64,000 nt of DNA from the NCBI GenBank assembly GCA_023245355.1, contig JAHFKN010000004.1, positions 25,309 through 89,308 on the forward strand. The letters run 5' to 3'. Within the stretch, counting starts at the first letter, position 1. Every line of letters begins with the position of its first letter. The position numbers were made by a program, and so were the translations under genes. This DNA is from Candidatus Gottesmanbacteria bacterium (GTDB lineage: Bacteria; Patescibacteriota; Microgenomatia; UBA10105; UBA927). Shown piece by piece: positions 2,514 through 56,315 of this stretch. The notes below the pieces were generated by a model. It was not told the origin of the DNA, ran no database searches, and worked only from the letters and a program-made list of their open reading frames with translations.

Positions 2514-2522
2514 ACTGGATAC

Positions 2523-6451: not shown

Positions 6452-6458
6452 AACACGT

Positions 6459-13120: not shown

Positions 13121-13137
13121 TCTAACCTAAACCCGGG

Positions 13138-13167: not shown

Positions 13168-13174
13168 CGTACCA

Positions 13175-13729: not shown

Positions 13730-13791
13730 TCCGGATATCTTCATAACCGTTTCAGTGGAATATCAGAGAACAATTCTCTATACTCACTCCT

Positions 13792-14454: not shown

Positions 14455-14499
14455 CAGAGCGATGCTTCCTCTTGGTATCTCCTCCCTGCTTCCATTACC

Positions 14500-16083: not shown

Positions 16084-16118
16084 GAGGTATATTTCCTACT
16101 TGATTTGAGTCCTATAGT

Positions 16119-16931: not shown

Positions 16932-17000
16932 TATTCCATCCCCCTACCGGACATTTTTTGTACAATTTAACAATGCGGCAAATTCCCGTATGATAAGAAG

Positions 17001-18857: not shown

Positions 18858-18858
18858 T

Positions 18859-22104: not shown

Positions 22105-25100
22105 TCACTTTTTTATCTCTAATTCCGTATTTTCTCCGTTTCTCACAAATACGTGAATCGTCACTATTCCCGTCACGGTAATTCGTAGTTCCCCTATCGG
22201 TATCCGGTCGCTCGTCCGGTACATGGGTATCCATGTATCTTTCGGCACAGTGCCGAAGACAGATAACAATTTCTCATCAATATCCTTTTTATTCGGGGTA
22301 AATGACACCGTTCTTTTACGGTTTGCCTGCCCGACATCAATGGCTAATTCATCACTGACGGGACCCACCCACGAAAACCACCCTTCCGCATCCGTTGGCC
22401 CGGCGGGATCCTCTATTTGGTAGGCCAGATACCCGCGGACAATATTTTTCTTTGCTGATTCTGGAACCGGCACGGCGATATCAATAGAATGATCCTCACT
22501 CCCGGCTGCCGCCCCGATATCCAAAAGCACCAACATCCCTTTCTCATCTATGCTGACTTCATACGTAATGGGGTCGTTTAGCACATGCAGACGGTCTCCG
22601 ACAAAAAGCGGCACATCGCCTCCCGACATCACCTGCCCGTTTTTCATAATATCCCTGTTGTCGTAATCCCTGTGCACAATCAGCTGTTCCCCGATAACCT
22701 GTATCCGCATCGGTGTCGCTTGCGTAAGGTACACATCAATACTTGCTGACGGCGTCAATCTGGCTGACGGAGGTTGTAGAGGAGACTCTTTTACCTGTGC
22801 GGCATTCGTATCAATCATCACGTTGGGCGTATAAATCACGGCAAACGAAAGGTCGTCCTCATTCCGCACCCCCCATTGTATAAACGCGCTCATAAGCTGT
22901 GTGCGCGCGGCAGATTCATCAGGCGCATCATTCAGGATTCTGGCTACATCAGCCCGATGCCCCTCAGAAATAATCTTCTGGATACTGTCACTACCCACAA
23001 TCCATCTGCTGCCCGGCGGCATCTCGCGCTCTACGACATTGGCAACACTGCCATCATCCTCAAACATCTGCGGCGTTTCCCCTGTCGTGCCCGTTACTTT
23101 TATCTGGTATGCGGCTTTCCCGGCTTTTGTCGGAATATTAATCCACGCCAGATACGTACGCGCCTGTTCGGGAGTCAGCCTGCTGTTTTGCCGTTTTACA
23201 GCAGCGATCGCCTGCGGCAAATTCGGTACAGTTTTCAACACGCTCCGTAGCACATCGTCGGGCAGTGATCCTGCTTTGTATTGCGCGCGCTCATCGTCTT
23301 GTATACGCGCCCATGCGACTGCCTGCTCCGCCTGAGCAGTACTCAACCGGGTATTCATCAACAACAGATTATTCACATCCTCTTCTACGTTTTTGACTGT
23401 AGACAGAATTCTGTCAACGTCTGCTTTCTCTAACTCGCGCGGTTCATCAACACTGTCCAATTCCTTCGTTTGCTGGTTGTAGACAAACCGGTAATGGTTC
23501 CCGACCCGGTAATCCAGCATGTATTGTTTTCCGTCTTTCCGGTAAAAAAGAATGACGGAAAGTGTCGTACGCACTTTTTCTGAGGCCGTCGCATTGTAAC
23601 TCCGCATTTCCTGCGCATACAAATCCATGATCTGTGCCAACCTGTCGGTACGGGCATCCGTATCCAAAAATACGTTCGGGTCAAACCCGCTTCCAGTCAT
23701 ACGCCGGTATGTTTCTATTGCCCGTTCCCATGCTTCTTTCTGAATATCCGCTGATGCACGTCCCTGACTTGATACGCCATCTATATTTACGATGATGTCA
23801 GGGCCGGTGATGATGACATCCTCCCCTCCGATTGCATACGTTGCCCCCTGCGGAACCTCAGGAACAAATGCGGGCACTAATGACTTTCCTGCTTTTGCAA
23901 GTGCTGCGCCTACTGATTGTTGTGTGTTCGAAAGCGGCGTTCCCATTTTTATGCCGAGCAGCTCCCGCACCCTAGGATCCATAATGCCCAAATTCACGCT
24001 ATACGGACCGGATGTAAGTACATTCCATAATCTTCTCCACCATGGCAACGCATCCTGATATTTTCTGCCCGCCAACTCACCAATTGCGCGCTGCCATCGG
24101 AATGCACGCGTGACATCTTCATCGGATTCGAATTTGTTTTTGGGCGCAATTTGTTCCAATTGATCCTTCTCGCGGTCAGACACGCCTAATTCAGTGAGCC
24201 GGATACCCCCGCGTTTTTCTACCGTCACATCAGGATGCAGATACCGCCGGAGCCAATCCCATTCCCAATAGGGAATACCTTGTTTTGGCAATCTATTCTC
24301 AAAGAAATGAGCAGATATAGTCTGTAACGCGTCTTCATTTGCGCGGGACGCCAAAACACCCAGTGCCTCATCAAAAATCGCTATATTTTCCGTATCGGCA
24401 TCCGACTCACCCCCGGTATTGGCAAATGTCACATCCGTGATACCAAAACTCGGATGGGAATAGTATCTGTGACCGTCAATAGAAAGATCCGATAGCTCGT
24501 GCTGCAGCGCCTCACGGAACGCCTGTATATCTACTTGCGTTCCCTCAGGAAGAAAAATGACAAAATCATTTGCGGATTTATGAAATACGACAATCTGGTG
24601 AACTCCCAGTGATCCGAACACACGTTCAACAATAGGGACAAACTGTTTATGAATCATCTCGTCCCCTGCCAAATCCCCCAGATCCGTATTTACGTGTTTG
24701 AGCGTTCCTGCATAACTCACCTGCAATAGCCGGGCATTTCCGGGATATAATTCATGAGCCGACTTTATAGCACCTTTAGCATTTTTATGCACCAGCACTT
24801 TTGCGTTTGCATCAATCGTCCGGAAATACCGTTCCAAAACGCCTGCCGGCCCCTGTAACAAATCATCTACCAGTAACGTAGTGGTCAGTTGTGTCATGTA
24901 TTGCCTGAACTGCTGATGCACGCTGTTTCCAGTCTGACCCAATAACGAAATATCATGTATCAACAAGTTGATAAGCCCATAACTTCTGCGTAGATTATCC
25001 AGCGCCTCCGTGTATATAGCATCTCCTTCTATAGCAGCAGCAAGGGCATTCTGATCCACACGGGCGACATCTTCCATCGCTAATGATTCATCAGAAAGAT

Positions 25101-28100
25101 GTATGCCAAGCGGCCTGGATGTTATCCGTTTTCCGTCTTCATAAAACATCGTGTGTGTTCCTAATATTTCTCCAAACCGCGATATAAAATCGTCTGCTTC
25201 AGTATCCGTCACTGACTCATCGACGAATATGGCATACTTATCCCCTGCTACGCGGATGAGGCCGAAGCGGTTTGCCGCGTCATTCATGGCAATTCTTGTT
25301 TCGAAAAACACCGCAGCCATGTCTTTCAATAAATAATCTCCCAATAATTTTTGAGTTCTGGAATCGGCGAGGACATGATTTGCCCCGAACAGATTTTCAA
25401 TATCAATAACTTTGACAATCTTACGGTTTACATGCGACAGCAACGGCCAGGATTGGGACGTCCAAACAAGTTGAGGAGCATCTCCGTAACTGTTTACCTC
25501 ATCAATCCAGTCAGTCCGCACCTGGCTCCGGATGCTTAAAGGAAACATTTCACGGCTCAGTGGCCGGAGTTGTTTTTGATGTAATGCATCAAGAAAATAC
25601 TCATTATATAGATCTACCAATTCCGGGGCGCCGATAAGTATCTGATTCATTTGTGAGGCTAACTCTATGTCTCCCATACGGTTGATAAACTGTAAGAACG
25701 CGCGGAAAATCGCTGCCTTTACTATCTCCCGCTGCTGAACCCGCTGGAAGCTGTTCTCCTGTGCACTATACGCTTGCAACACCGGCGTCCTGCTGCGCTG
25801 TTGCAACTCTACAAACACATCACGGAAATCGTTGAGAAGCTGTTGGTGTGTCCAGGTGCCGTTCCCTGACACTGATGCAAACCGTTTGCGCCGGCCGCTC
25901 GGGGTGACCAGATCCATCACCGCAAATACCGTCCCGTCAGGCACTTTCACCGTATCAGCTGAGTATTCCGATATGGAATCGAACTCTGCTTCAGATACGA
26001 GTACAGGAGGGACATACGAAACAAGCGCTGTTCCGTTCATCGCCTGTATCATAGGACCGACATACGGCAGACGCAGTAATCCCAAACGCAAAAAGCGCTG
26101 GAGCCATATCGGAATATACCGGTTATTCGTCACCATAAACACGACACCCAAAAGCGACTCGTCCTGCGATCCGTTGATCGCCCGGACAGCCGTATTGAAT
26201 GCATCCGGCTCAATCCACTGGTTATCAGGAGTGATCATCGGTAATGTTTGCGGCTGGATTCTCCGCAACTCAACCGGGAAATTTTGCGCATCACTGCTTT
26301 CCGGATACGTAGGTACCATCGGCGAGATGATGGAAGAATCGTTTTTGAAATCCATATGAAGCGCTTCCAGTGTTTCCGCATATAAACGCGCAACCCCGCT
26401 GAAACGAAGCGTTCCGTCAACCGGTATCTGTAACACCGGATCCTCAACCTGAGTATTCATACCGGGAACATTCATCGTTCCCTGCTCCAAAATACCGTTG
26501 CTTAACGCAGCAAACATCCGGAATGCCAACACGCCCTCTACCACCAAATGATCGCCTGTTACTATGATGCCGCCGGTACCCGTCCGGGCAACCCGGAGCC
26601 ATGCATTCTGACTCTCCGTATATCTTCCGACATACCGCTCCGGATCAGCCGGCTGCTCGTCAATAACGACCATCGCCTCCCCCGGATCCGCTGCTATTTC
26701 ACCCTGTGCAATCAATCCGGCAATTTCATCCGCCGTAAATTCCCGGTCCAAAGGAACCCTGATACGCCGGAATCGTCCGTCTGCTTGTGCAATCGCAATC
26801 ACCGCTTCATCTTGGATAAGCTCCCTGGGATCATAGGCGGTCCTGTTTTTTGCTTCATTCACCCGTACAAACAGAGGCTGATTGTGTGCTCTGGCAGCAT
26901 CACTTCGGGCAAATTGCAGGAAGTTGACTATCAGTTGCGGCGCAAAGTCATCCTTTACCCGCATGTTTTTATATTCCTTGTGCAGCACGATCGCCCGTTC
27001 CCGCCGGGTCAGACTTCCCACCATATATTTCTCCCACTGCGTCATTTCGGAAACAGCCCGCGAATCGACGGCAAATTGCGGAGAAGAAATCCGCCTGATA
27101 CCCACAAGCAGCCAGTATAATCCGCGTGCCAGAGCCCGACGCATAGAGGAAGCGCGGAGAATCGGCAGATCGTTCATTGCTGCTGTAAGCTGCGTCGGTG
27201 TCGGCAATCCCATGCGCACCAACGACCGGTCATCGGTGCCGATTGCTACCCGTAGGCTTTCGCCGAACGGATACTGCGGCTGCATACGGATAAACAATCC
27301 TCTCACGCCCTCCTGTACTCCGCGCAGCTGATTGAGCATGCCCGCACGCCGGGCGACAGCCGGCCACCGTTCAATCGGCTCATGGGTAAATAATGCTACT
27401 GCTTCTTCACGGGACATAAACCGTCGGACACTAAACACCGCTTCTACCCCTGATGTGACCATGGCGTCGTACTGACGGTATTGCTGCGGGGTTCCCATGT
27501 GAGCCGCCAAAAGCGCATCAATTTCACCCGCATACTCTTCCCCGTATTCACGGATGACTTTTGCACGGATGACCCCCGCTTCAACGGGATAACTGTCATA
27601 TTGTCCCCCGTCTGCCTGACGTTTCGTGAGCGTTCGAATAATAAATGAAGAATCTTTCGCGAACGAATTATCCCGTTGGGCGGCATATGCAAGTATTTCC
27701 GTGCTTACGATATACCGGTATGTGCGGGCATCAAGATACGCAGCTAATCCTTCCCGGCGCTCTTCCTGGGTATTCCATGACCGCAATAATTCCGTTAACC
27801 GGTCGGTTGCCGGAGCAGAACTTCCGTCATTCCTGATGATGTCATACACCGCATGCTGCATCTCATGAATAACCATTTGTCTGCCGTACGCTTCCCCGTA
27901 CCGGCGGTTTATAAATATAACCGAATCGTTAAATGCTGGTATCAATGTTTTCCCAGGATGCAACCCGCTTGCGCCTTCATACGAAACCCCCTGTGCTACG
28001 ATACCGTCGTGCATGAGCTCGTGAGCATTCAACGCCGCTTTGCTAAAATCTGCAGCATCCAGTTCTATGATCACAAACGGGCCGCGGACGACCATGCTGG

Positions 28101-31100
28101 TTTCTGCTCCCACATCCGTACCGAATACTGCTTTTATGAACGTTTGCCCGTCCGGATACGCTGAGGCGGCGCGTCCGATAATCTGTTGCTGCGTGCGGTA
28201 CCGCTCCACAATTCTAACCATTTCATCCCGCACCGGCCGCGTAAATCCGTACGTTATCTGATATTGATCATAGACGGCCCGGATTGCCTCGTCGTCTGCC
28301 TGCGGATTTGCGATAAGAAGCTCGCGGACTTCGGCTTCCAATCTGGCCAATCCGACTCGGTAATAGGCATACTTTTTATCAAACGCCGCCTTGGTCATCC
28401 GGCGTTCCCAGGAATTCGGCGGGGTTTGCCGCATGGTGGTTATCCACTCGCTCACGTCAAACGTTTCGCCCCTTCGTATGGGAACGGCGGATATACTCTC
28501 CCGGAACCTGGTAAATAGATATGGTTTTTGCAGGAATTCAGGAATTAATTGCTGAAAGCCCCATACCGACCGCGTTACCGGTTTCTCCGGATCCATAGAC
28601 TCGAGTATTACTGCTGCCGGCGGCTCCATTCCCTCTTCTATAATCGGTGTCACACTGTCGATTACTCGCCCGACCGGACAATCATTTGCACCCTGAGGAT
28701 CTTGTGCAAATACCAACGGAATCAAACGCAATGCAGACCCTCCGCATGCCTGTTGTCGCACCCGTTTCGCCGCGGCTCTGACAAACTGTTTTGCCGGCCG
28801 GGTCACCGGTGTATATGCATTCCGAAGCGCCCTGCCGCTGCGCACTGCTGCAAGCGCCAGCTGCGGATCAATCCACGGACGGCTTTGCTGACGGAATTGC
28901 GGAGATTGCGGCGCAGGTTCTGAAGCAGGAATCAGTTTCCCTATTCCCTGCGGAATAAGCACCTGCATGGTCTCATCAAACTGCCACAACCCGCGCCACA
29001 TAACACCCAAGGAAGCTGTTACTCTTGTAAACCAACGTTTGTCCGTCTGCTGTCCCTCAAGACGGAGCATGGCGCGCGCGAGCGCAATGTTTGCACGCAA
29101 AGACCGCTGAATCGCACCGGGATTACCGGCTGCAACTTCGGATGATTTGAGCGCACGTCCTGCGAAAATCCGCTGCACGAACCGGAACGGCCGCTGCACG
29201 GCGGTATATGCAACTCCGACAAACACCGAACTCAAACTTAGATTCGTGCCTGGCACAGACCCCTGTTGCCGCGCCGCCGCCAATGCGCCCCCCTCTTCCT
29301 GTGTAAGTAATATGGCGATTTGTGATCGTCCACGGCCCTCTGCAATCGCGCCGTATTTGGCGACAAACTGATCAAACGTAAGCGTTTCACCGCGGATAAT
29401 TCCGTCTCCGGTCACTTTTCCGTTTGCAAATTTATAGTTTGCGTCATATACCGTAAATGTCTGTATTCCTGCTTCATTTGTATCAATATACGCTATGTGT
29501 CCGGGATTTTTTGATCCTTTGTTGTATACGACGAAAAAATGTCCGGGTCCGTATGTTTGCAAATCTTGTTGCGACTGTACGCGTAATACGTAATATTCAC
29601 CCCGAAATACCAATCCGTCGGGATCATTGGATAATTCATCACCGGCCATAGATTTCGCCACTTCACCTCCGATTGCTGAAATCGGAATATTGAAATCAAC
29701 GAGCCCGCTTTCTACGAGAAGATTTGCAAACGCCACACATTGCACCTCCTGATCCGGCCAAACATTGCGCTGCGAGGTGAACAGGTCATCCAGGAAATCG
29801 TATGCATCATAGTCCGCCCGGTCGAGCTCACGTGCAAGCGTCTCAAACCCGCGGTCAACCAATCCTGTTTTTAATGCTTCACTCGGCGTTACTGTATCTC
29901 TGTCAGGGCTACTTTGCCATTCGTTGAGGATATCTGCAAATACGTTGGACATAATAGCCGCCTGCGTTTTGGCAGCCGGGCCCAATATCGTCCGCGCACC
30001 TGCTGCTGGTAGCCGCGGCAAAGCGGTAGGAACCTGTGGCAGCGTTTCAGCAACCGGTGGCTGCGCCTCAATAACAGGCGGCTGTACTTCTTCCGGTTGA
30101 CTCACGGCGGCACTTTGTGCTGGTACCGACAGCGGTTTAGTTCCGGCAGGAGACAACACCTGTACTCCTTTAAACTTAGCAAGGAACGTATCGACCGGCA
30201 TGAGGTACGTGCCCGTCGCCTCATCTTTTTCTATACCGGCATACACACCCCACGTAGACGGATTGATAAATGAAGTCATCAGGCCGTCTGCCAGCCGGAC
30301 GAATACTTCGCCGTCACGCTCAACAAACCCCAGATACACCAAACTGTGTTCGGTAACTTTCGATGAATTAAGGGAAATGATTGTTCCATGGGCAACACCC
30401 TTGTAGGCTGCTTCCTGCTGTCCCATCATGACCCGAAGTAATGACTCCCTCAGATCAGCAGACGGCACATACAGAATAACTTTTCCGTCCTTGATCTCGT
30501 ATTGTATGGACGGGTGCTTGCTCACCATTTCCAGGAATACCGACTGGGTAACTTCGTACCGCGTCTTGGACTGCGAAATGACGGGGATTGTTTCGTCACT
30601 TAACTGATAGCCCATATTCTTAAGAATTGAGGCAAATTCCGTCTTCCCTTTCCCCTCCTGAACCCCGAGATTCAGAAGCGCCAGCGCCTGTTCTGACTTT
30701 GTTCCGCCGCCGTGGTTTAAATATTTCTCCACGATTGCAGGATCCATCGTCAGACTGTCGCGGGACTGAGCTTCGGGAGACAATAATTCCGCATACAACA
30801 ACGGGTCGATAACGACAGGCACGGTTCCCGTAGTTGCAGTCTCTGCATCGATAAGCGATATTGCAGCCGTAAGCGTATGGATATAACAGGTAAATCCGCC
30901 TGCCTGCGGCAGCGCGATAACGTATCCTGAACTCTTGCTTCCCGGCAAGCCGCTTTGGATTTGGGAAAGCGGAATTGCAGCGGTTTGCGCACCGCGTTCT
31001 TCCGTCGTTGCCGACGGGAATACGTCATCATGGAGAAGTGACCCGCTTGGCTGACCGTCGGACGGATATGTCACAACCCGGGCAATCACCGTCCCCTGTT

Positions 31101-34100
31101 CATTCGTGATATCGACAACTTGTGCGCCTGCCAACACAAGCCGCGCGTTGATACCGTTTACATTTCCTTTTCCGAGCGTTGCCTCCAGACTCTCATACAA
31201 CTTACGCACATCATCAACCATTCGGTTTTGTTGTGCCGTACTAGTACCATACGTCCGCTGTGACTTGACATAAGTTACAAGCGCCTGCGTCACATCCGTT
31301 TCATACCCGAGCGAAGACACTGATACGGGGACAGCTGCGGACGGACCACTCCCGCTATTACTCACGGGAGGCAAGACCAGTATCTCACTGGGCTGTTCCT
31401 GTTGATCAGTGATGACATTGCTGCTTTGCTGCCTGCTCGCAAGATAATCCTGAATCCGTTCTGAATACCCCTTCATGGCAGGAACCTGAGACAGAAGGAG
31501 TGCTAGGGCCAACACACCGCTGACCATTTTAATCGTTACCTGCGCGAATACTTTTTCCAGCGATTCAAATACGCGCCAACCGACTGACTGCAATCCGAAC
31601 AATATGGCAAGAACGGCTGCAATCATTCCCGATATCTGCGGCAGCCGCGTCTGCACCAGTGATCCGTACTGGGGAACCATCATGGCAATCGCCGCAAGGA
31701 ACCCAAGTCCTGCCGCTATCTCAACTGCTATCAGTATGTTATTTCTGGTAAATAATCCGCTGATCTGATCACGAAGCGGTGCTATCTGCTTCCGCGGACC
31801 TGCCGGAACAAGGACGGACGGCAATAAATCTCCGCGCTGCCCCCGTGTTACTGCCGGCGTCTGACCGCGGTCTTTTGCTCCGTATATCGAACCAAGCGCG
31901 GTAATCCATTTCCTCGTATTGTTCCTGATATTTCCTTTGTAAAGGGAAGTATCAATCCCTGTTAATACCGCCGTAACGACGTCGTTGATCTCTTGGGTTT
32001 TGACCTTCTCGCCTCTTGCCAGCCGTTCTACTACTGCGCGGGCCTGTGCATTCCCGGCTATGGCGCCGACAATGATATTGGCAGCGCTGTCGCCGGTAAT
32101 GCGCGTAATCAGTCCGAATGTCCGGGCATCTGCTGTCTCCCGGACCATCGAAGTTACCAACGCTGCCCGCACGGATTCAATAAGCGGAGACACCGGGGCT
32201 CCGGAAAGATGCCGCACTACATTCTGCTGGATAAGCGCCAAATCAGAATAATTATGAACACGGATCTGATCTTCTATCGCAGTATCGACTGCAGACTGGA
32301 CGAATGTTACCCATGCTTCATGCTGACCGACGTATTCCAGCAAACGGTCCTGAATATACACGGCAAATAGAGTCTCCCAATGGTCTTGCGAGATTGCCGC
32401 CGGACGGATCGGATATGCAGTACTTACCTCACGCACAACTCTGTCACGGAATTCCGCGTCATTGCGGTCAATGACACGGCCTTCCGCAACCCACGTGCGC
32501 AAAGCTGCGCGTACCTGCGTACGGATTTCCGCTCCGCGGATTCCCATAAGGTCAGCAAACCCCTTTGTCTCTTCCGGCGTTACGCGGAATAATTCATAAG
32601 CAGCGATGAGTCTGCTCCTTAATGCGGCAATGTCTTCTGTTCTCGCCGGAGATCCGGTATCAAGGGTAGGACTGCGTAATAATTCGGTCAGCAATGCATA
32701 CTCTTCTTCATGTCCGTATGTTGCCGTCCTGTTTGCACCCCTGCCTCTGCTGATAGTTCCGATCCTGTTTTCGATAGCAGTACGGAGAACAATCTGTTCC
32801 TTTCTCAGTGCTTCAAGCTGAGAAGCGAAAATCACATTTGATTCCTCAGTCATCTCCGTACTTTGTAATTCTTCAGGAATTATCTGCGGCTCGGGCGTCT
32901 GCCGTTGTGCCGCCTGCCTGATAATTTCAGGATCTACTCCTACGGTTCTGGCCAATATTGCCGTTAACCGGGTCGCGCGCTCATTGCGTTTTGCCCGTGT
33001 GACCAACCGCTTCATTGTGTCTGACTCCATTACACGGATAAGACGCGGGGTGGCAATGGCGATATGAATTTGCTTATCCTGCGATGTGAATTCCTCCTGA
33101 TGCGATTCTATATAGGCAAGCGCTGCTCCTCCCTGAAGCTTCACTCCCTCAATAGTCGTAATTTGCAGCTGCTGGTCAAGCTGGAATCCGAGCGTCCGTA
33201 TAACAAATAACGCCATTGTCGGATTGGTAACACCAAGAATGCGTACCGGCCTGGTATACCACGGCATGCGTTGAATTTTTTCTATCGCACGGACCAAATC
33301 AACAGTTCCTAAATTGACCGACTGGACATCATATATCGCATTTTGGCTTGCGCTAAACGGCACGAAATGCATCCACATGGGTATCAAAGGAATAATCGAT
33401 TGGGAACTTTTGATACGGCGCGGAATGAATGATATGAGTGATTCAATAAACCTTGGTACACGATCATATAACCGTGATATAACGTCACTTACACGGGATC
33501 GCTCGAAAGCCACTGATCCGGTCCAGTCATAATTAGACCCGGTCATACGTGCATGGATATTTGTGTCTGTTTGGAACAACTCTTCTTCCGTTAGCGACGC
33601 TAACGCTTCGCGATATCTATCTTCAGAAAAGTTCTCGTCCGTTATTCCAAACCGCTCAGCCACTCCGGGCGGCAGCGATTCGATCAGGCGGAAATTTACC
33701 ATCTGCGGCGTTTCATAAAAATCACGCTTACTGTTGTATGGGATACCGAACTCATCGAGAATCGAGCGCGCTGCGTCGCGATTGGCTTTCGTATTTTCAA
33801 GACGGATTATATTCAGGTTCAGCCCGGAAGCGATGCCTGCTCGACGGGCTAAATCAGTCTCCGTACGGGACATTTCGAGCCGAAGAATACGTAATAATTC
33901 TTCCACAACCCGGCTCCTGTCATTTCCTGTTGTAAATATCCGCCCATGTTGTTCAATAAAGTACGTAACTTCATTCAGGGTAGAAACGACAGCATTCGTT
34001 GAAAGATTCCAGAGACGGTTCTCCGAAATCAACCGGAGCCCTGTGGTAAGCAGTACAATCGGGTTTATTTTATCGGTATCCACACCTTCTTTTTCTATAA

Positions 34101-37100
34101 GGGATTCAAGCACCTGAGTGTCTATTCCGAATCGCAGGCTAAGCATCGGAATAACATCTTTGGATTGTAATTTGCTTGTCGCGGTAAACCGTGCAACATC
34201 GGACCGGCTACGGGGAACCGACAGTCCGTTGTTTCCTGATCCCCCATCAACGACAACCGGCACTTCATTGACTGCCGCTTCTTCCTCCCGGATAAGGCTT
34301 CTTCCGTCACTCAACAGTAGTTGCTCAGCCGACTGCACCGGGCTCAGCAGTATGGGATATGAAGTCTTCCCCGTTACCTCAAAAATAGTCCTCACATCAG
34401 ATGCCAATTCCAGCATCCGTTCCTGTGCAGCCATGGGATTTTGCAGGTCGGCCACCAACATGGCAACCGCGTCAGGAAGGGTTATTTCTGGGGGTATGGG
34501 TTCTTCTTCCCTTGGGGGAATACCTGGCGCCGGTGCCCCACCCGCAGGCTGCTCATTCTTTCCGCCCGGCTCCCCCGGTTTTAGAAGCCACAAATAATGA
34601 GCAATATCAGTGATCAATTGTGCGAAATTATCCTCGGAAATACCATACGTTTGTGTGATATGAGCAAGCGTTTCATCGGTCGGTTGCCTGTATTGGACAT
34701 CATTGGGGAATAATTGTTGGAGAAGTTCTGTGGTAATTTGCGCGGCATGGAGTCCACGGAATATCTGCTCTGTTTCTTCTGCACTGCGTACCCATCCGCT
34801 GTTTGCTTCCTCAAGAATTTCCAGCGTCAGCTGCTCCTGCCGTACAACAGCAGGAATCTGAGCAGTCGGATTGACTGTCATGGATATCAGTGTCCGCATA
34901 TATATTGTCAAAAGCGCCCTCACTGCGTCGGGGTTTGCCCGCACCTGAGTAAACTGCCGTTGAATTGCCGCTTGCGCCTCATCCCACCGGGGATTTGTGT
35001 CCAGTTCTTCCTGTAGATCAGTAAGACGCGGCAATACCAACTCCCCGGTAGCTCCCGATATATCGGCAAATACCGCATCGAGCATTGCGTTATCTTTCGT
35101 TGCGTCCAGCCCGAACCGCGCCGCCATTTCATCCATAAGATCCCGGATAGTGCTTTGCGGTGCAGGCGCAGGAGCTTCCAAACTTGCATAAATTTCCGAT
35201 ACCCATGACTCAAGTTCTGTGGTGTTGATTCCTGTTTCCATGATTCCGCCGTCAATAAGCAGCATTCTGATCCTGTCACGGAGCATCGTTTCCCTGTGTT
35301 GTCCGCGTGCTTCTGCAACAAGCCGTTCATCAGACGCTACCCGTGATAACAGGTCATAAAATTCATCAAGTGCAGCGCGGTCCGCAATGACATGCCGTAT
35401 ATACCCGGTAAACCGCTCAGCTTCGAAGCCTACTGTCTCTTCGAGTAACGGGCTCAGGGATTCACGCACAACTCCGATTCCCTGTGCCTCTGTCGTCCAT
35501 GATTCCTCACCGAGCGCACGGACTACGGCAGTAATATCAGTAAGGAGTGCTTGTGCCCGGTACGGATTTCGCATAACCGCACGGATAATATGCGGAGTAA
35601 GCGGAGCAAGTTCCCGTGCATCGGCAAATAATCCCAATAATGTCTCCCACGCAACTTGAACGTGCGGGTCACGCCAGGCTTCCAATACACCCACCGGCGG
35701 CATAACACCTACCAGCATGTCTGTCACGATCGGTGCGATAAGCTGCCGCCACCCATCGGGAATACCGCGCGTTATGGCAAATGTAATACTTCTTCGTCTC
35801 TCATTCATGGCACGTGCTCCGCGTGAGCGCTTCTGCTGCTGTGCCCTGGATAAAGCCAACGCTTCCCTACCCGCCCGTTGACGGATGTTTGTCGCGATAA
35901 ACTCTCTGGGAGCTGCCGGAGGTACACCCTCATCAAACGTCATACCCCACTTTGTCAGTTGGTCCAGGAAATCATTGAGCCGCTCCTCGACAGACTGCAG
36001 CACGTCGTACCTGCCCATTTGGGATCCCGTCCTTCTCGAATACCGTCGCTCAGGCGGAGCAGTTCGGTTATACGCATCAATACCGTTTTCCAGCAATTCC
36101 AACGTACTCTGACCGCCCGTCGTTGTCTGATCTACCGCTGCCGTCCTCTGATTCAGCTGCCCTAAATATGCAACCATCGGATCAAACACCTGCCGGAGAA
36201 TCGGCTCGCTTAATCTGGTATACGTCTCACCCGCTTCGGGACCGGTGTTATCTACACCGGCAATCATATGCTCCATAAGCTGATGGATAGTGCCGACTTT
36301 TACGTTTACCTTGCTGTTCCATGCAGCCAAAAACTTATCCGGACTGATATGAAAGGTGGTAAACCGGTTTAATATAATACCCGTCACGGCATCGGCAAGT
36401 ACCGGTGTACTATCTTCATTGATCCACGTTGTTCTTGCTTCTGCAATCGTCCGCAGTATAAAGTTTTGCAGATCCTGAATTTCACGGCGTAGCTGCCCCG
36501 CCTCCTCAAGGTTCTTATATGTCTCGGTCTCTTCAATTAAACGGATAAATATATCCTCGGGTACAAATATCGGCAATCCCGGATTACGCAATTCCGCTTC
36601 ATACGCCGCGCGCAATATGTCTGCTGCCCTATCCGCTGGGCTCGCTATGATGGCTCTTCGTGCCGATACAAGGGCCCGTAATTGATCCCTGATTTCTTCT
36701 GACTTCGCCTTCGGGAACTCAGTTAACAGCCATGCATCATAGGCCGCACGGGTTTCCTGAACTTTTTGACGAACCTCAGCGGTAACAGTACGGAGTTCGG
36801 AAACATTCTGATTATCTACAGCGTCATACCACTGTTGCGGTACGTCCTGCAGCGTCTTGTGCATATACGATTCCTGGTCGCGTATGATACGAATTGACGC
36901 CTCAATATATTGAATCCGCAATTTACGCTCGAATGATCCAGCCGCCCTCTTCCGTTGTTCTTCCGGCAATATGGTGATTTTCTGTACATCTGCATCAAAC
37001 GCGCTGATAAGCTTTTCTGTCTCATCAATGTTATCTTCTGCGCCAAGCGACAATCCCTGATATCGGCTCCGCAATTTAGAGAGAATCTTATTCCCTGCCT

Positions 37101-40100
37101 GAGTAACTTTTTCCTGCAACTCCGCCCCGTAATGCCCATACTCGCCGCGGGCGATTGCGTCGGCAATCTGCTGCAACCGTGCAGTATCACGGCTCAGCCG
37201 GGCATATACTTCCATATCTGCCACAGTGGACAACTCGTCAAAAAACGCCGTTGCCGCTTCAAATTTTTCCATTGACGATGTATCTGCCCCGGGAACGAGC
37301 GCCTTGAGATCAAACACCGGCTGATCCAACACACTGAAATCTCCGTTCCCGATATTTTCCATAAGACGCTGAGTAATCTGTATGTTCCCCTGCATGTCTG
37401 CTTGTGCAGCATCTGTCAGTGTTTCCGCTTCTGACCGCATGAACTCATCCAATGCTATCAGTGCGTTATACCGGTCCAATCTCCTTTTATAAATCGCGTA
37501 GTCATTTCCTTTACCCATGCCGCTAAACCACGCTTCCGAAAATACCGTTTCTCCCCCAAGCGCAACTCCTGCCGGCTTCTCATCAAATACGCGTTTTGCC
37601 GTCTGTATATACAACGCGTGATACCCCGAGATAGCTGCATGGTCCCGCGGGGAATATTCTTCCGGAGAATAAAACCAGGCGTCCGCATTCTGGTAATATC
37701 CTGAAACTTCCTCAGACATCCACGCTTTAAATGCACCTTGCCCGAATTGACTGTCAAATAGGGTACCGAATGGCGGCACCATTGAGGATCCACCCCGTAG
37801 CAAATAGGTGTACCCTGTGTCTGCTGTAGTTGCCAGACTGTCCAAAATCGCCCGCTCCTCAACACCTGCCTTACGAAGCAAATTAACGGCCTCTAACACA
37901 CGGGCAACACCTGTTCCGTATGCTATGAATTGAGCATCCGGTACGACCAGCTGAGCCAAACCCGACGTAAATGCTTCAATGTACGTTTGTTCCTGCGATT
38001 TATTAATGCTCAGATTTTGCACCTGACGTTCATGAATCATTTCATGAGCCAATGTGTTTACAAGCATTTCAGTGTTATTAAATTGACTTGTCAGCACGAA
38101 ATGACCGCTCAGTTGCTTTGATTGGAAGCCAACCACGTCAGCGGCATCAGCGGTGTCGTATACGATCCCAAGCTTTGCGTCGAGCACGGTAAACGGCACT
38201 GCATACCGTCCGGACCCGAATGCGAACCGGTGCCCCGTCTTGTCTTCAACGGTCTGATTAAGATAATTATGCACGGCAATATTGAGATCAAAATAATTGC
38301 TGAGCGTACCGAACGAAGAAAGGATATCCTGATAACTCAGGCGCATACTTGCAGCCGCAAGATATAATTCATCATCCGTTACTTCCGTAAGCGCTCTGTC
38401 GTCGCGATATACTCCCCCGTTTACCCGTGATTCTATTGACTGCAACAGGGCTGCCTGTAAATTCGTCAGATTAGACAAATCCAAATGACCGCCATCACGG
38501 GTGTTTTTCAGCCGTTGCTTGGCAATACTCGTTTTGTACAGGGTAACAAGACCCTCAACGGTGCGCTTGTTTTCGGCTGCATCCCCGTACATACGGGATA
38601 TATACTCATCAGCAACTTCCCTGAGATTAATTGTCACGCCTAACAGGTGCGCGACTTTAGTCTCCATGTCTTTCTGTATCAGACCGGCACTCCCTATCTC
38701 GGTATTCAGGGTGGTAAATTGGGAAATTTCCGTTTCGGTAAAATCAAATCCGAGCCTGTCATATTCACTCTTCAAACTGCGTAACGCCGTCGCAGTAAGC
38801 ACGCTGTTTTTGTCATACCCGTTCGCACGGATAAAATCAGAAATATGATTGGTAAATTGTGCGTATCGTCCGATAAACCGCCGCACCTCATAATAATCAG
38901 TAGCCGCCTTCCCGAGTTTCACAGACGCCACACTCTTCTCTAACGTGGTGTTCTGGCGTGAGCTTCTGCCCGCTGTTATCCTGTCTATCACGGACTGTAT
39001 TGCCGGGGGAAACTGTTTCTTTTCCGTCGTATCCCCCGCCGGAGCCACAGCTGGTGCTGCCTTTTTAAGTTCTTCTATCTTCTTTTCTGCCTCTAAAATC
39101 TCTTGCTCATACTCCTTGAGCGGGTCATTACCGAGAATTGCATCTGCCGCCAGATTCCACAGATTACGAAGCACGCTTGAGGATTGTCCGGTAATTTCCG
39201 CTTTTATCGCCGTGAGTGTCCGCTCGGCAGATGCAGCATCGGTCATCGTACGTATCAGGGACAAATCCGCTTTGCGCTGCGCGCGGATGAACGCGAACAC
39301 TTCATTTGCCTGCTTTGCGCTCTTACCTGCTAATTCTGCACGCACCGCGTTCATAGCTAACGCCCGTGCAGTCCGCGCATTTTGCCTCGCTCTGTCTGCA
39401 AGAGCTACTTCATCAGGAGCGTCAAAAATGTCAGCTTCTTTGGTATGCACAAGATATCGGACTATATTAAACAGAATCGTATTTACGGGCTTCCCTGCAT
39501 CCTCATGGCCGGATCCCGGCCTATGATTATCTTCATGCTGCTGTATAGCTGACATAATGTCATTGAGATACCCGATAGCAGAATCTGTTTGCCCCACACT
39601 CCTGGCCTGATGGGCCTTTGCAAATAGCGGCATGATGACGTTTTCCACAAAATCAGAACAGTCAGAACAAAGCAGCGGATTGATTTGTGCACTGCTGAGC
39701 ATCTGAGCTTCGACATTTGCACCGAATAAATTCGCGACGAGAGCACCGACATCGGCGCCACCCGAAACTCCGGCCGGTGCTGCCGTATATACCGTAGTGT
39801 AGATAAATTGCGATTCCGACACGGTAACCGGCGTTTTTACCCCCTCAAGATCAATATTCCACGTTGACCTGTTTATACCGTTTCCTCTGACACGTCCTTT
39901 TATCTCAAGCACCGTGCCGTTTGCATTCGTATATTGAGCGATAACGTCAATACCAAGTCCCTGCGCGACACCTGCCGGCAATACTACGCCTGTCAGGGTA
40001 TATCCCGTGAGATCAACTTCAGGCGTTGTTGTCACCGGTGCAGAAGGAACGGGGACCTGGACAATAAGTGTTCCTGCTTCAAATGCTAACCGCTGCTCTT

Positions 40101-43100
40101 CCGTCGCAATCGCCTGCGTCACGCTGTCCAGTAGAGTCGTTGCGGAAATGACGTCGCGGACAAATCCTGCACCCGGCACGACACCTGCCACAAGCGCTTT
40201 TTCAAGCGCTTGTAAGGCGGTAAGATGTTGCTGTTCACGGGCAACAACAGAAGATACAAGATTATTGAAAGCCTGAACAATTGCAGACGTATTTCCCCAC
40301 AGCGCCCTAAGGTCCAGCCGGCCGATAGCCACCCCCTGCCCGCGGATTGTTTCCAAAAACTCATTCATCTGTTTTTGTGCTGCTACCAACTGTGATGCTG
40401 CGTCTGCTTTCTGCTTTCCGGATATATACGCATCTTGTGCTCGGCTCACCATTGCCTCAGCTGCTTTAATATCTTTTTCAATTTCACGGAGCTTTGCTTC
40501 ATAATCAATGACTGCGCCTGACTCTGCATTCGCTTTTGCATTCACGACTGCCTGCAGCGCTGCCTGAGCCGCACTTCTTGCGGTCTGCAACGCTTCGGAT
40601 TGTTTGCGGACGAATTCATTTGCTGCAGCAAGTCTGGCCTGAAGATTTTGTAATTGTTCCTGCTGCTGCGCCGTCAATTGTCGTGACGGTATCGGTTGAG
40701 CACCCTGAGGTCGCCTCCAAAAAGCACTGATCTGATCAAAAACTGAGACAGTAAATGGTGCAAACGTATACGTTTCTGGAGTAAACGTATTTACGACCGG
40801 GGTATCATACCGATAGGAATAAACAGTAGTGTTTATTTCCTCCGTGACCCGTTGTACACCTTGACTGCCAAACGGACTTGTTGCATCCAAAAATACAAAA
40901 TCGCTTCCCTTATACGCCCGGCTTAATTTATCGTCCAGACCCAGCACAGTGCCGTTATTGTATGATTTTGGTGCAGCCGGATTATGACCATGAAGTATAC
41001 GCGGTGCTATCGCATGTGTATTAACATCCGTAACAAAAAGAGACCGATAGTAATCGGACAGCATTTGACTCCCTTGTAGTTGCCCGTGGTGTGTGAGGCT
41101 TCGGAAAAGATTCTCAAGTTGAGTTGTATTCCCCCTCGCTATGATAGCGCTGATATTGGCATTGATCCGCTTTACTACGTCATCAGCGCTCAACCCTAGT
41201 GCCTGTATACGCTCCCTGACGCGCCGCAAATCATTTATATCTACCTCTTCGGAATCACGCAGATCTGCAAACGCAGGTTCCATAAAAATATATTTTGCAT
41301 AGATCGCGCTATCACTATGCTGCATGATGTCACCGCCGCTCCGTAGCGATATCCAATCAAGTGAAGCAAGTAGTTTCCGTAACGACGTGACGTTCTCCCT
41401 AGCCTGACGAACCTCTTCGGGATCTACTCCATTTCGGGCAAATAACCCGCCACCTTCAAACGACGGAGAGTTAGGATCTGATAAAGCTGCCCAGAGAAAT
41501 TGAACTTCATGATTTCCGCCCATGAGCAGCATGTCACCGCCCATACGCCGCGCTTCATCACGAAGGGTTGTGAGACGCCGTAACAACTCTAATCCCGGTT
41601 GGCGTGCATACTGCGCGAAGTATCCGGACTTCAGATATGGCCGTACAGTGAGCCGTCCGTCAATAAACTTAATACCCCGGTCAAAATAATCACCAAGAAA
41701 TGTCATCAAAATACGCGGATCTTTTACGTGCCATTCATGCTGTGCATCTACGGTAATTGCCCCACGTGACAATAACACCTGTTCAACTTGTTCCGGGTCA
41801 GCGTGAACATCTGCTAATATCAACCTATACAAGGCCGCATCTATCTCACTGATAACGACATGTTCTGCTATCGTCTTTTCGTCCCATTTAATCCCTGATA
41901 GTATGGTTGCCGTGACTTTTCCAAGAGACGGAATGATGATATTTCTGCCGAATTCATCGTACACCTGATTAGCTTCCTGATCAGACAAGCCGAGCCGCAC
42001 TAATTGCTCAATCTGATAGCTTCTGAATACCGGAGAGCCGAATCCTTTCGCGAATATTTCCTCCCGAACCCTGCCCTCAAAATCACTCATGAGACTCACC
42101 GGATCTATTTCAGATTGTGCGCGGGCGAATTGCTGCATCTGCACACCGATATTATGAACTGCCAAAGTAAGTTTGGATTGGTATGCTTCACGGAGCTGAG
42201 TATATGCACGTGCGTTTTTCTGCTGAAGTATCGTAGCTTCCTCCTCCTGTGTCGGGGCAGTTACGACCGGACTAACAGGTACCGGCTGTACCGACTCGAT
42301 CTCCAGCGCTATAGCAGCCACCTGCGCATTCGCTGATTCCAGTGCCGCCTGAGCACTCATAACTGCTTCATCAGCTTGTTGTTGTGTTGTAAGCGCCTGC
42401 TGATATGCTTCTTCGGCAACACGTCTCCGTTCTTCAGGATTATCCTCATTCTTTAACGTATTTATTGCATCGAAATCCGCATGTAACGCGGCGAGTTGTT
42501 TTTCTGCATCCAGTACCTCTTTCTGCCGTGAAGCCGCCGTATCTAATAACGTTTGTAATTCACCTTCTAATTGAATTAATTGCTGTTCTTCAGGCATTAT
42601 CGGAGATGTACCTTTTGCGGAAAATGCCGGCCGTGGCGTTACTTGTGCCAGATGATGTGCCCATAATCCCACACGGAGTGTGTCGTAGCCGATGATAAAC
42701 GGCACAAAAAGCGTCACGAGAAATGCAGGAATTATCCCTGCGATACCGATCGCTCCGAACGCCATACCAAGGACTGCTACGATCATCGGGAGCAAAATAA
42801 CACGCGAGACTGCATACCATACGATTCCTCCGAATCCTTTGGTGATACTCGCGTTCAGGAATGAATACAAACCACCCGATTTCGCAAACAGATTTTCAAC
42901 CCCGGTAAGCGCTCTGGGTGAGCTGGCAACGAGTGTTGCGACAAGCCGGGACAGGTCAAATCCGAATACTGCAAGCGCACGCGCTCCCCAGAACGGCCCT
43001 GGGAAAAGAGCGATACCGCGCGATATCCAGAATATCGCCTTATCTGTTCTTGGTGAGGCAGTAATCACGCGGGAGACAAACTGACGGATCGTCGTAGGTT

Positions 43101-55023: not shown

Positions 55024-55024
55024 G

Positions 55025-55095
55025 TGGACCCGAGGGGAATCGAACCCCTTTTTGAACTATGCCATAGTTCCGTACTACCGGTATACGACGGGCCC
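55025..55095 (-). tRNA. tRNA-Ala (anticodon GGC)
   Basis: Hand-folded. Acceptor GGGCCCG/CGGGTCC with the G3:U70 Ala identity pair, anticodon stem GAACT/AGTTC, loop ATGGCAT, T-arm AGGGG-TTCGATT-CCCCT. No encoded CCA. Confidence 0.8.
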
Positions 55096-55102
55096 TGACA
55101 AG

Positions 55103-55175
55103 TGGACCTGACCGGAGTCGAACCGGTGATCTCCGCAATGCGAATGCGGCGCTCTACCAACTAAGCTACAGGCCC
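55103..55175 (-). tRNA. tRNA-Ala (anticodon CGC)
   Basis: Hand-folded. GGGCCTG acceptor with G3:U70, D-arm GCTTAGTTGGTAGAGC, anticodon stem CCGCA/TGCGG, loop TTCGCAT, T-arm CCGGTTCGACTCCGG. 7 nt from the neighbouring tRNA. Confidence 0.85.
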
Positions 55176-55229: not shown

Positions 55230-56315
55230 CTATTTCAAAAACGAAGTTGGATTGACAGGGGTGCCGTTTTTCCGGACTTCGAAATGCAGATGCGTGCCGG
55301 TTGACCGGCCGGTCGAACCCATTTTGCCGATTACCTGGCCCCGGCTCACCGTGTCCCCCGCCTTCACATACACTTCTGTCATATGAGCGTAGAGCGTTGA
55401 CAATCCGCCGCCGTTATCGATGATTGCGTGCCTGCCATAGCCGTAATTTAAATACTGAACCGATATCACTGTTCCGTCCCCGGCAGCTGTAACCGGCGGC
55501 TGACTGGGATTGGCGATATCAAATGCCATGTGATACCACACGGGATATTGCGTGATGACGCCCACAGTCGGCCAGGAAAACTGCCCGCTTCCTCCTGCCG
55601 AAAGCGGCGCTGCTGCAAACTGCCGCGGAGCGATAGGGGCTGCTTCCGGCATAACGCCGTCAGGCACGACGAGTGTCTGTCCGACGGACAGAGCAAACGT
55701 ATCGAGATCCGCAAAATCATTAAACGGAAAGTTTACGATTTTTTGCGCTTCCGTTTTATACTTCTTGGCGATCGAATACACAGTCTCCCCTTCCCGGACT
55801 TTATGCACCATACCGGTAACAGGAGGAATCTTCAGACTTTGCCCTATAGTCAAACTATCTCTTTTAAGATCATTTGCCCACTTAATACTATCAACTGATA
55901 CGCCGAATTTTTGCGCGACGGTTGATAAGGTATCACCGTTTTGTATCTGGTATGTTATGATTTGATCACGTGGTTTTTCTGACACCTGCGTCTGCACGCC
56001 GTATTCAGATAAATCCAGACTCGTGACAACTGCTGACGGCGGTGTAAAGTCAGCAAGCGCCTGATTCTGCGCCCCGGGATACGCGGTTGCCAAAATGGGC
56101 GCCGCAATAATTGCAGCAAGCACCAATACACTTACGGAAAAATGCAGGAACGGACGCTGATACCCCCCTCTTCTTGCCATGAGGATATCAACCAGCACGT
56201 CTTTATTGGTTTCAAACCAGGTGCCGAACCGCCGGAGTTTACGGGAAAGGTAATGATACCAACCCTTCTGCCACAAGCGGAGATCATCCCTGAGTAATTG
56301 CATTCGTTTTCTCAT
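55230..56315 (-). CDS. LysM-domain M23-family metallopeptidase (peptidoglycan endopeptidase), membrane anchored
   Basis: 361 aa. N-terminal TM helix, two LysM-like segments (GDTLSTVAQKFGVSVDSI; GETVYSIAKKYKTEAQKI), and the M23 catalytic signature HMAFD...GSTGRSTGTHLHFEV. Confidence 0.8.
   Translation of the reverse strand: MRKRMQLLRDDLRLWQKGWYHYLSRKLRRFGTWFETNKDVLVDILMARRGGYQRPFLHFSVSVLVLAAIIAAPILATAYPGAQNQALADFTPPSAVVTSLDLSEYGVQTQVSEKPRDQIITYQIQNGDTLSTVAQKFGVSVDSIKWANDLKRDSLTIGQSLKIPPVTGMVHKVREGETVYSIAKKYKTEAQKIVNFPFNDFADLDTFALSVGQTLVVPDGVMPEAAPIAPRQFAAAPLSAGGSGQFSWPTVGVITQYPVWYHMAFDIANPSQPPVTAAGDGTVISVQYLNYGYGRHAIIDNGGGLSTLYAHMTEVYVKAGDTVSRGQVIGKMGSTGRSTGTHLHFEVRKNGTPVNPTSFLK

Follow-up and report, generated by a model that had tools for sequence, protein, structure and literature searches.

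Giant proteins of the 'Archaeovorin' type, found in Omnitrophota, exceed 10,000 amino acids (aa) in length. They combine several transmembrane (TM) clusters and peptidase-like modules with domains that score far below HMM cutoffs, and they have been proposed to be linked to the attack of ultra-small bacteria on cell walls (West-Roberts et al. 2023, bioRxiv 10.1101/2023.11.21.568195). According to the same study, C39 domains occur in giant multi-TM proteins, and self-cleavage has been suggested. The protein described here resembles the Archaeovorin-type giants in its length, TM clusters, sub-threshold domains and peptidase-like modules, a likeness of features. However, its host belongs to the Patescibacteria (Gottesmanbacteria-like) and not to the Omnitrophota: the Rho gene places the window in the Patescibacteria close to Gottesmanbacteria, and an origin in Omnitrophota was rejected on this ground.

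The giant ORF and its neighbourhood

The window, a stretch of 64,000 nucleotides, contains an uninterrupted ORF of 10,844 aa with a TTG start (22105..54639, minus strand), as defined by the ORF listing and its translation. The original prediction placed two candidate papain-fold modules at aa 7900-8420 of this protein, after a second TM cluster. All of the peptides quoted for the two modules were located at aa 7905-8410 of this minus-strand ORF, and the numbering matches the TTG start. The second TM cluster was also confirmed: it consists of three strongly hydrophobic helices (aa 7635-7721; 31477..31737, minus strand) with Kyte-Doolittle peaks of 2.0-2.4. Two 5,000-aa Pfam scans covering aa 1-10000 detected no family at E<=0.1, and separate scans of segments yielded sub-threshold matches only (Metallophos, 0.0045; GGDEF, 0.013).

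A relative with approximately 84% identity (L001) is encoded on the metagenome contig Ga0172375_10000139, with a dN/dS of 0.17 over 2,437 codons. In addition, a 7,844-aa protein (P0002) was identified as the positional ortholog of the giant ORF. The two loci have the gene order DUF2298-Rho-LysM/M23-tRNA-Ala-tRNA-Ala-giant gene in common, and outside module 2, the downstream one of the two candidate modules, the two giant proteins are almost unalignable. The syntenic ortholog carries a SecA_DEAD domain (PF07517). The window protein has TM clusters; Pfam, sequence and profile scans detected no SecA_DEAD domain in it, and a profile-profile comparison of its P-loop region (aa 2230-2960) with the SecA_DEAD region of P0002 revealed no similarity. 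By hydropathy, P0002 has no strong TM cluster before its module 2, which counts against the topology proposed below.

The M23 peptidase gene that was noted near the giant ORF is real. It is located at 55230..56315 (minus strand) and encodes two LysM domains (Pfam 3e-22) followed by Peptidase_M23 (3e-32); its position relative to the giant gene is identical in the P0002 locus, and a search of the contig index returned no record of the window M23 protein. However, the gap between this gene and the giant ORF contains two tRNA-Ala genes (GGC and CGC; 55024..55175, minus strand), identified with ARAGORN and Rfam. The tRNA-Ala pair is present at the equivalent place in locus L094. Because these genes intervene, the two protein genes do not form a tight operon; we therefore dropped the idea of an M23-giant operon, and the argument from such an operon is weakened, although the neighbourhood itself is conserved.

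Module 2 and its resemblance to CHAP domains

Module 2 (aa 8225-8465; 29245..29967, minus strand) comprises an N-terminal helical part and a proposed CHAP/NlpC-P60-like papain-fold core. Its candidate catalytic residues are C8301 (nt 29737-29739, minus strand) in the QCVAF motif, preceded by the putative oxyanion residue Q8300; H8381 (nt 29497-29499, minus strand) in GHIAYID; and D8399 (nt 29443-29445, minus strand) and N8401 (nt 29437-29439, minus strand) in YDANY. Q8300-C8301, G-H8381 and D8399-x-N8401 are invariant in the module of the syntenic P0002, which is 36% identical, and this module is the top segment (120 bits) in the BLAST comparison of the two giant proteins. The Q-C, NKGSxNPGH and DANY motifs are shared by the window protein, L001, P0002 and a close relative, P0009, although D8399-A-N8401 reads D-S-N in P0009. 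The original prediction listed GHFFVVYNKG as the first His-containing segment. This His does not hold as a catalytic residue: H8367, in the GHFFVV motif that begins exactly 66 aa past Q8300, was rejected since Asp takes its place in the distant homolog P0002. In NlpC/P60/CHAP domains, the equivalent of GHFFVV is the 'G-D-hydrophobic' strand ahead of the catalytic His.

An AF2 model of module 2, of mixed alpha+beta type, was obtained with a pLDDT of 68.5 and a pTM of 0.65. DSSP analysis of the model assigned a helix to residues 72-86, carrying C77 (= C8301), and strands to residues 144-149, 155-163 (with H157 = H8381) and 169-176 (with D175 = D8399). The Foldseek comparison of this model with the PDB, which had been suggested as a check, gave no match below E=0.2.

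When module 2 was compared with 13 phage CHAP domains using hhalign, a score of 30.7 was obtained (P=2.9e-4), with a probability of 40% against a usual standard of 90%; the best of 80 column shuffles scored 19.2 and the reversed query 13.8. The alignment pairs H8381, D8399 and N8401 with H117, E134 and N136 of the phage K endolysin LysK (the 'EQN' motif) and, at low mact, QC with QC, and single-sequence hhalign runs each matched the same CHAP region. The alignment of module 2 with C39 scored 11.8, which is no match; scores were only 12-24 when either module or the CHAP set was compared with C39.

Module 2 has several features in common with CHAP domains (PF05257; LysK C54-H117-E134-N136): its nucleophile motif, 'QC', lies in a helix, the 'G-H-hydrophobic' strand is preceded by a hydrophobic strand of the form 'G-x-hhhh', and an acidic-x-Asn motif stands 18-20 residues past the His. 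There are also differences. The Cys-His spacing is 80 aa in module 2 versus 63 in LysK, the D-x-D-G calcium-site motif of phage CHAP domains is absent from module 2, and module 2 has a helical N-terminal extension of approximately 65 aa. Furthermore, the setting of module 2 is a loop within a polytopic protein of 10,844 aa and not an endolysin or a secreted hydrolase. The nucleophile motif of NlpC/P60 domains is of the 'DCSG' type, whereas module 2 has 'QC'; the third residue pattern of module 2 is D-x-N and not His, and no sequence-family match to NlpC/P60 (Escherichia coli MepS) was obtained.

No database search assigned module 2 to a family. At E<=10, Pfam gave no CHAP match for module 2 of the window protein and only noise for the two modules (KH_DTX3L and an EF-hand), while one ortholog in the module 2 alignment matched CHAP at E=0.029 (15 bits versus a cutoff of 26 bits). 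NCBIfam and PHROGs yielded nothing relevant for module 2, sequence (phmmer) and profile searches of the PDB were empty or returned noise, and neither a scan of GTDB genomes with the modules nor a tblastn search of phages with module 2 found a match. In a word-indexed search of 5.8 billion proteins, the single-sequence query matched nothing and the profile query retrieved one close relative, P0009; an exhaustive phmmer search of 1.84 billion representatives gave eight matches, seven of which are fragments. Public data contain about ten sequences of the module family, which makes it nearly an orphan. The papain-fold claim of the original prediction for QCVAFANLL...VYDANY is partly supported: the residues are invariant at 36% identity and align in register with LysK, but all family thresholds lie beyond the scores obtained.

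Module 1 and the surrounding loop

Module 1 (aa 7780-8165; 30145..31302, minus strand) is the weaker upstream instance of the original prediction and contains the candidate residues Q7912, C7918 (nt 30886-30888, minus strand; in GGFTCYIHTL, which starts at aa 7914), H8098 (nt 30346-30348, minus strand; in EHSLVYLGF) and D8118 (in RLADG). Its C/H/D residues are kept in fragments with 49-61% identity. Family searches yielded no significant match, the structure model is unreliable, and hhalign comparisons with CHAP, with the VanW-like region of P0002 and with module 2 found nothing. Module 1 is missing from P0002, where a VanW-like domain takes its place. In module 1, as in C39 domains (ComA, CvaB; PF03412), the Cys follows a Gln by six residues, a strand opens with the His, an Asp lies approximately 20 residues beyond the His, and the C-terminal part has a 'G..l...F...(W/F).GV.vl' motif, but the Cys-His spacing of module 1 is 180 aa versus approximately 80 in C39. 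The hhalign score against 12 C39 domains was 23.9 (P=0.009), with a shuffle maximum of 24.4 and one of 60 shuffles as high; in a permissive alignment the His and the C-terminal motif align and the Cys does not, and Pfam detected no C39 match in module 1. Module 1 is probably a second single-cysteine enzyme module; as a papain-fold module it is a candidate only.

The two modules are joined by a Pro-rich linker (aa 8166-8224; 29968..30144, minus strand) that is 58% identical to that of L001, with a dN/dS of 0.15. In L001, this linker holds an inserted extra domain of approximately 190 aa with its own Cys and His. Its Pfam E-values for CHAP and Amidase_6 are 0.026 and 0.036, respectively; hhalign comparisons of the insert with CHAP and module 2 found nothing, and the word-indexed search of 5.8 billion proteins gave no match to it.

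The N-terminal flank of the second TM cluster contains four K/R versus one D/E, which, by the positive-inside pattern, suggests a cytoplasmic N-terminal side and a following loop that lies outside. On the other side of the modules, a weakly hydrophobic segment (aa 8466-8481, NLSLSSVFVGVAYTAV; 29197..29244, minus strand; hydropathy 1.28) is kept in L001 and P0009 and is followed by an Arg-rich stretch (5 K/R per 30 aa); it is possibly the return TM helix. The intervening loop (aa 7722-8465, approximately 745 aa) is acidic and Arg-poor (3.6% Arg). In this it is close to the N-terminal ectodomain, which is rich in Cys and has 2.5% Arg, whereas the flanking segments have 7-8% Arg. Bracketed by the three-helix cluster and the weak return helix, the loop most likely faces outward, as judged from hydropathy, positive-inside counts and Arg content.

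A loose C...H...D/N layout, defined as a Cys, a His with a hydrophobic strand 50-200 aa later and a D/N 15-22 aa after that, occurred in 33% of composition-preserving shuffles of the 744-aa loop and is therefore meaningless on its own. A stricter form requiring G-H plus D-x-N occurred in 0.04% of shuffles, but this criterion was chosen post hoc. Significance comes instead from the conserved residues, the rarity of cysteine, purifying selection, the profile-profile alignment and the model of module 2. C7918 and C8301 are the only cysteines from aa 4995 to aa 8631 (approximately 3,600 residues), and past aa 876, P0002 has just two, one in module 2 and one in the VanW-like domain approximately 280 aa upstream. 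The dN/dS values of module 2 (0.045) and module 1 (0.03-0.04) are the lowest in the region (flanks, 0.10-0.22). For module 2, this evidence beyond layout is good. For module 1 it is no more than partial: conservation and selection speak in favour of the original prediction, while a family match and a reliable model are missing.

Possible functions of the two modules

With moderate confidence, we interpret module 2 as a catalytically competent cysteine hydrolase with a papain fold, a very divergent member of the CHAP/NlpC-P60 type that would lie in an outward loop and cut peptidoglycan. C8301, in the helix behind the oxyanion residue Gln8300, would be the nucleophile; H8381, in the 'NPGH-IAYI' strand, would act as the general base; and D8399 and N8401, which end the next strand, would orient H8381, an arrangement like that of C54/H117/E134/N136 in LysK. 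Modules 1 and 2 would share the outward-facing loop of a giant membrane-anchored protein of this Gottesmanbacteria-like CPR bacterium, and module 2 would cleave peptide or amide bonds in peptidoglycan, either of its own wall or of the wall of a host, and the neighbouring LysM-M23 endopeptidase may act together with it. We infer the cell-wall role from the CHAP-like chemistry, the likely outside location of the loop and the conserved LysM-M23 neighbour.

One or both modules may instead be processing proteases whose substrate is a partner protein or the giant protein itself, from which fragments would be released. A polypeptide of 10,844 aa plausibly requires such processing. In the giant proteins of Omnitrophota, C39 and S8 domains have been proposed to play this role, and the C39 domains of bacteriocin exporters do so as well. 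The Q-x5-C and H...D spacings of module 1 recall C39, and the permissive alignment sets H8098 and the C-terminal 'GTYLMPVDTFLAKFKGVQVLS' against the C39 His and 'G..ls.eeF...WtGv.l'. We nevertheless consider this explanation unlikely, since the score of module 1 against C39 falls within the shuffle range with the Cys unaligned, module 2 matches CHAP and not C39, a Pfam C39 match is absent, and no cleavage-site motif was identified. It is less probable still that one or both modules are non-catalytic binding or structural domains with a coincidental or vestigial Cys/His/Asp layout. Such an explanation would apply above all to module 1, given the frequency of the loose layout in shuffles, the lack of a family match or reliable model and the replacement by a VanW-like domain in P0002, and HlyB provides a non-catalytic C39-like precedent. 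However, the candidate nucleophiles coincide with the sole two cysteines in approximately 3,600 residues, the proposed catalytic residues of module 2 all survive at 36% identity, and both modules show the lowest dN/dS of the region.

For module 2, a papain fold with another chemistry appears about equally improbable. Examples are deamidases like Cif, transglutaminases, and acyl- or amidotransferases, with a protein or a small molecule as substrate (for example, a target on the surface or in the cytoplasm of a host cell). The transglutaminase-like proteins VASH1 and LapG score 4.7, and N8401 lies 20 residues past the His, which is the spacing of the Gln in Cif triads. However, the difference in Z (6.8 versus 4.6-4.9) is a small gap for a medium-confidence model, and sequence-level signals favour CHAP over these families. 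The Cif/CHBP/MvcA deamidases, effectors of eukaryote-associated bacteria with a Cys-His-Gln triad, are 8-10% identical to module 2 with no sequence-level signal, which places module 2 outside the Cif family; their third residue is Gln, whereas module 2 has a CHAP-like D-x-N. Moreover, the targets of Cif are NEDD8/ubiquitin of eukaryotes, which have no relevance for a CPR bacterium of the groundwater type.

Beyond the CHAP-like hydrolase reading, the contents of the loop allow a broader and distinctly tentative proposal. The loop contains modules 1 and 2 in the window protein, module 1, an extra CHAP/Amidase_6-like module and module 2 in the 84%-identical relative, and a VanW-like module and module 2 in the distant ortholog. 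It may thus act as a 'bay' in which single-cysteine enzyme modules are exchanged, carried by a giant membrane protein of Microgenomates that evolves fast but keeps its position. Module 2 would then represent a CHAP-like family not described before, and module 1 a Cys-enzyme with a new fold. Such a set might serve episymbionts as a tool to breach the envelope of the host or their own wall, perhaps exported with the aid of the ATPase modules of the protein itself.

CPR/Patescibacteria are thought to be attached to hosts, and their interface proteins are mostly unannotated. The 32.5-kb gene described here, which has no recognised domain, corresponds to approximately 3% of a typical 1-Mb CPR genome. 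If our interpretation is correct, the most conserved piece between two syntenic, otherwise unalignable giants would be an enzyme module, and module 2 would add a near-orphan branch to the CHAP/NlpC-P60 enzymes that is missed by present HMM libraries and Foldseek. C8301 and H8381 would then provide a concrete, mutable handle on the function of a giant protein.

The giant gene and its chromosomal setting

The flagged interval (29410-30927) is minus-strand coding sequence and lies within ORF 22105..54639, which ORF listing and translation define as a single uninterrupted frame of 10,844 codons on that strand. Every peptide quoted in the original prediction was located in the translation (numbered from the TTG start), namely GGFTCYIHTL (C7918), EHSLVYLGF (H8098) and RLADG (D8118) in module 1 (aa 7780-8165), and QCVAF (Q8300 and C8301), GHFFVV (H8367, 66 residues past Q8300), GHIAYID (H8381) and YDANY (D8399 and N8401) in module 2 (aa 8225-8465). 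Three strongly hydrophobic helices (aa 7635-7721) directly precede the region, in agreement with its placement after a second TM cluster, and the M23 peptidase gene noted nearby is a LysM-LysM-M23 gene on the same strand (55230-56315, Pfam 3e-32); the initial observation is thus confirmed. A loose Cys, His with hydrophobic strand and Asp/Asn layout also arose in 33% of shuffles of this 744-residue stretch. The bare layout is therefore not beyond chance, and the case must stand on other evidence.

Pfam scans of aa 1-10000 (two 5,000-residue scans) detected zero families at E<=0.1, and segment scans yielded sub-threshold matches only, to Metallophos (0.0045; a candidate metallophosphatase with GDYFDRG..GGNHE) and GGDEF (0.013; a GGDEF-like region). 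Two HExxH-type motifs came up with the segment scans; inspection by eye identified three (aa ~5532, 8873 and 8925) and a candidate Walker A/B ATPase at aa ~2311/2448. Despite this near-absence of family matches, the ORF is a real gene under constraint: a relative encoded on metagenome locus L001 (Ga0172375_10000139) shares ~84% identity with it, with an overall dN/dS of 0.17.

The flanking genes are those of a bacterial chromosome segment: beside Rho and DUF2298 there is an extended series of large polytopic membrane proteins, glycosyltransferase-like in character. Because Rho is 84% identical to its counterpart in a Patescibacteria MAG and 60-78% identical to those in many Candidatus Gottesmanbacteria MAGs, the host is a Microgenomates-group CPR bacterium. 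This Rho (56572-58314, minus strand) carries a low-complexity, Arg/Gly/Asp-rich N-terminal extension of ~190 aa, and its relatives align mostly from residue ~170-190 on. Both strands of 3289-21207 encode large polytopic membrane proteins, eight or more in number and 470-780 aa long, that resemble glycosyltransferases of the GT-C/ArnT/YfhO type, and a GT2-like gene and an aminotransferase lie at 335-3239; by resemblance, 335-21207 looks like an unusually dense envelope-glycosylation neighbourhood. GC skew across 1-64000 is negative in all 2-kb bins except 54001-56000 (+0.013), averaging about -0.1 whichever strand the genes are on; strand composition disparity is reported for a complete Microgenomates genome (PMC7143001).

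The LysM/M23 gene is separated from the giant gene by two tRNA-Ala genes (GGC and CGC; 55024-55175, minus strand). The order DUF2298-Rho-LysM/M23-tRNA-Ala x2-giant is common to the window and the locus (L094; GCA_040960765.1) of P0002, a 7,844-residue giant protein, where two tRNA-Ala genes (CGC and GGC) occupy the equivalent site (L094 5525-5673). P0002 is a positional ortholog of the window protein. The gene order has been kept although the two giant proteins are almost unalignable, having just four short BLAST segments in common, the strongest of which is module 2 (120 bits). SecA similarity is undetectable in the window protein, though P0002 has SecA_DEAD. The M23 gene had been taken, together with the motifs, to suggest cell-wall or protein-processing activity; since two tRNA genes intervene, this argument is limited to the conserved neighbourhood, which both loci share.

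Module 2 and the CHAP family

Module homologs are extremely rare in public protein data. None turned up when 5.8 billion proteins were searched by word index, and exhaustive phmmer against 1.84 billion cluster representatives returned eight, of which seven are short fragments (49-91% identity); a profile search added P0009 (80% identity). The informative phmmer match was P0002, residues 6831-7059 of which align with module 2 at 36% identity (E=5e-25). The Q-C, NKGSxNPG-H and D-A/S-N-Y motifs are invariant in module 2 of the window, L001, P0009 and P0002. The Cys and Asp/Asn singled out in the original prediction hold up (C8301, D8399 and N8401 are invariant down to P0002). Its choice of GHFFVV as the important His strand does not, as H8367 is Asp in P0002 (GDLGVI). 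On these grounds, the pattern is the classic NlpC/P60-CHAP one (Cys in a helix, a G-(D/H)-hydrophobic strand, a G-H-hydrophobic strand and acidic-x-Asn), and the predicted catalytic His is assigned to the G-H-hydrophobic strand (H8381). The dN/dS of module 2 against L001 is 0.045, an approximate ratio because dS is near saturation; the flanks give 0.10-0.22 and the linker 0.15. Cysteine use is sparing: C7918 and C8301 are the sole cysteines between residues 4995 and 8631, and P0002 past residue 876 likewise has just two, one in its module 2 (C6905) and the other in a VanW-like domain immediately upstream (C6625).

An AlphaFold2 model of module 2 from a five-sequence alignment (mean pLDDT 68.5, pTM 0.65) is alpha+beta, with N-terminal helices, a helix at 72-86 holding C77, strands at 144-149, 155-163 (H157) and 169-176 (D175), and more strands beyond. 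Other structure matches of the model were helical bundles covering the N-terminal part alone. In hhalign against 13 phage endolysin CHAP sequences, including the phage K endolysin LysK (verified as 100% identical in a phage collection), the module 2 alignment scored 30.7 (P=2.9e-4, probability 40%), whereas 80 column shuffles reached at most 19.2, the reversed query 13.8 and unrelated comparisons 11-24. H8381, D8399 and N8401 are registered with LysK H117, E134 and N136, and single module 2 sequences each match the same segment; Q8300-C8301 aligns with LysK Q53-C54 at a permissive threshold. One sequence of the module 2 alignment matched Pfam CHAP at E=0.029, but module 2 falls short of the threshold of that family (PF05257). 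We conclude that module 2 is probably a divergent CHAP/NlpC-P60-like papain-fold domain with its predicted catalytic set intact.

Module 1 and a possibly exchangeable loop

C7918, H8098 and D8118 of module 1 are kept in the fragments P0003, P0001 and P0004 (49-61% identity), and its dN/dS (0.03-0.04) is the lowest of the region. A Gln lies six residues ahead of C7918, as it does ahead of the nucleophile Cys in papain and C39, the bacteriocin-exporter peptidase family. Pfam, NCBIfam and PHROGs yielded nothing for module 1, and P0002 has no counterpart. Against 12 C39 sequences from plasmid-borne exporters, hhalign scored 23.9 (P=0.009), with one of 60 shuffles reaching 24.4; the His and C-terminal motif were aligned and the Cys was not. 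Module 1 is a conserved domain with a single cysteine, and a papain-like fold is hypothetical for it.

Both modules lie in an acidic, Arg-poor loop of ~745 residues (aa 7722-8465; 3.6% Arg), akin in composition to the Cys-rich, Pro/Thr-rich N-terminal region (2.5%) and unlike the flanking 7-8% Arg segments. Positive charge marks both the flank ahead of the TM cluster and the stretch past a weak hydrophobic segment (aa 8466-8481). This charge and Arg distribution fits a loop facing outside. Arg content alternates in step with the TM clusters (2.5% at aa 83-1400, 7.1% at 1700-3550, 7.5% at 4000-7600, 3.6% at 7722-8465 and 8.0% at 8482-10844), and aa 83-1400 hold 32 of the 45 cysteines among Pro/Thr-rich repeats; both features suggest that outside and inside segments alternate along the protein.

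In L001 an extra domain of ~190 residues is inserted in the Pro-rich linker that joins modules 1 and 2 (L001 3991-4560, residues 1331-1520 of the frame-0 translation), with its own Cys (NVLCGPLT) and His (FTHWMIITRID), weak Pfam matches to CHAP (0.026) and Amidase_6 (0.036) and no homolog in 5.8 billion proteins. In P0002, the VanW-like domain (residues ~6560-6760, L094 ~25680-26280; Pfam E=2e-4; C6625 in GGGLCATETAF) sits directly ahead of module 2, an arrangement that parallels the two single-Cys modules of the window. Since its contents differ in L001 and P0002, the loop looks like a bay of exchangeable, wall-related single-cysteine modules in which module 2 is constant.

Possible activities

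As a proposed mechanism for module 2, C8301, aided by H8381, D8399 and N8401, would hydrolyse an amide or peptide bond, with Q8300 as the oxyanion residue. The substrate would most likely be peptidoglycan stem peptides at the outer face of the membrane, where module 2 may act alongside the conserved LysM-M23 neighbour. Alternatively, the modules may be processing or self-cleaving proteases, a role suggested for C39 domains in giant Omnitrophota proteins (bioRxiv 10.1101/2023.11.21.568195), or module 2 may carry Cif-like or transglutaminase-like chemistry. One or both modules may also be non-catalytic, a concern chiefly for module 1. The original proposal of two papain-fold modules is thus partly supported: the CHAP-type reading of module 2 is supported by the invariant motifs and the register with LysK, and module 1 is unproven. 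Module 2 would be a near-orphan variant of a well-known enzyme superfamily, carried by an unusual host protein, a 10,844-residue CPR membrane protein.
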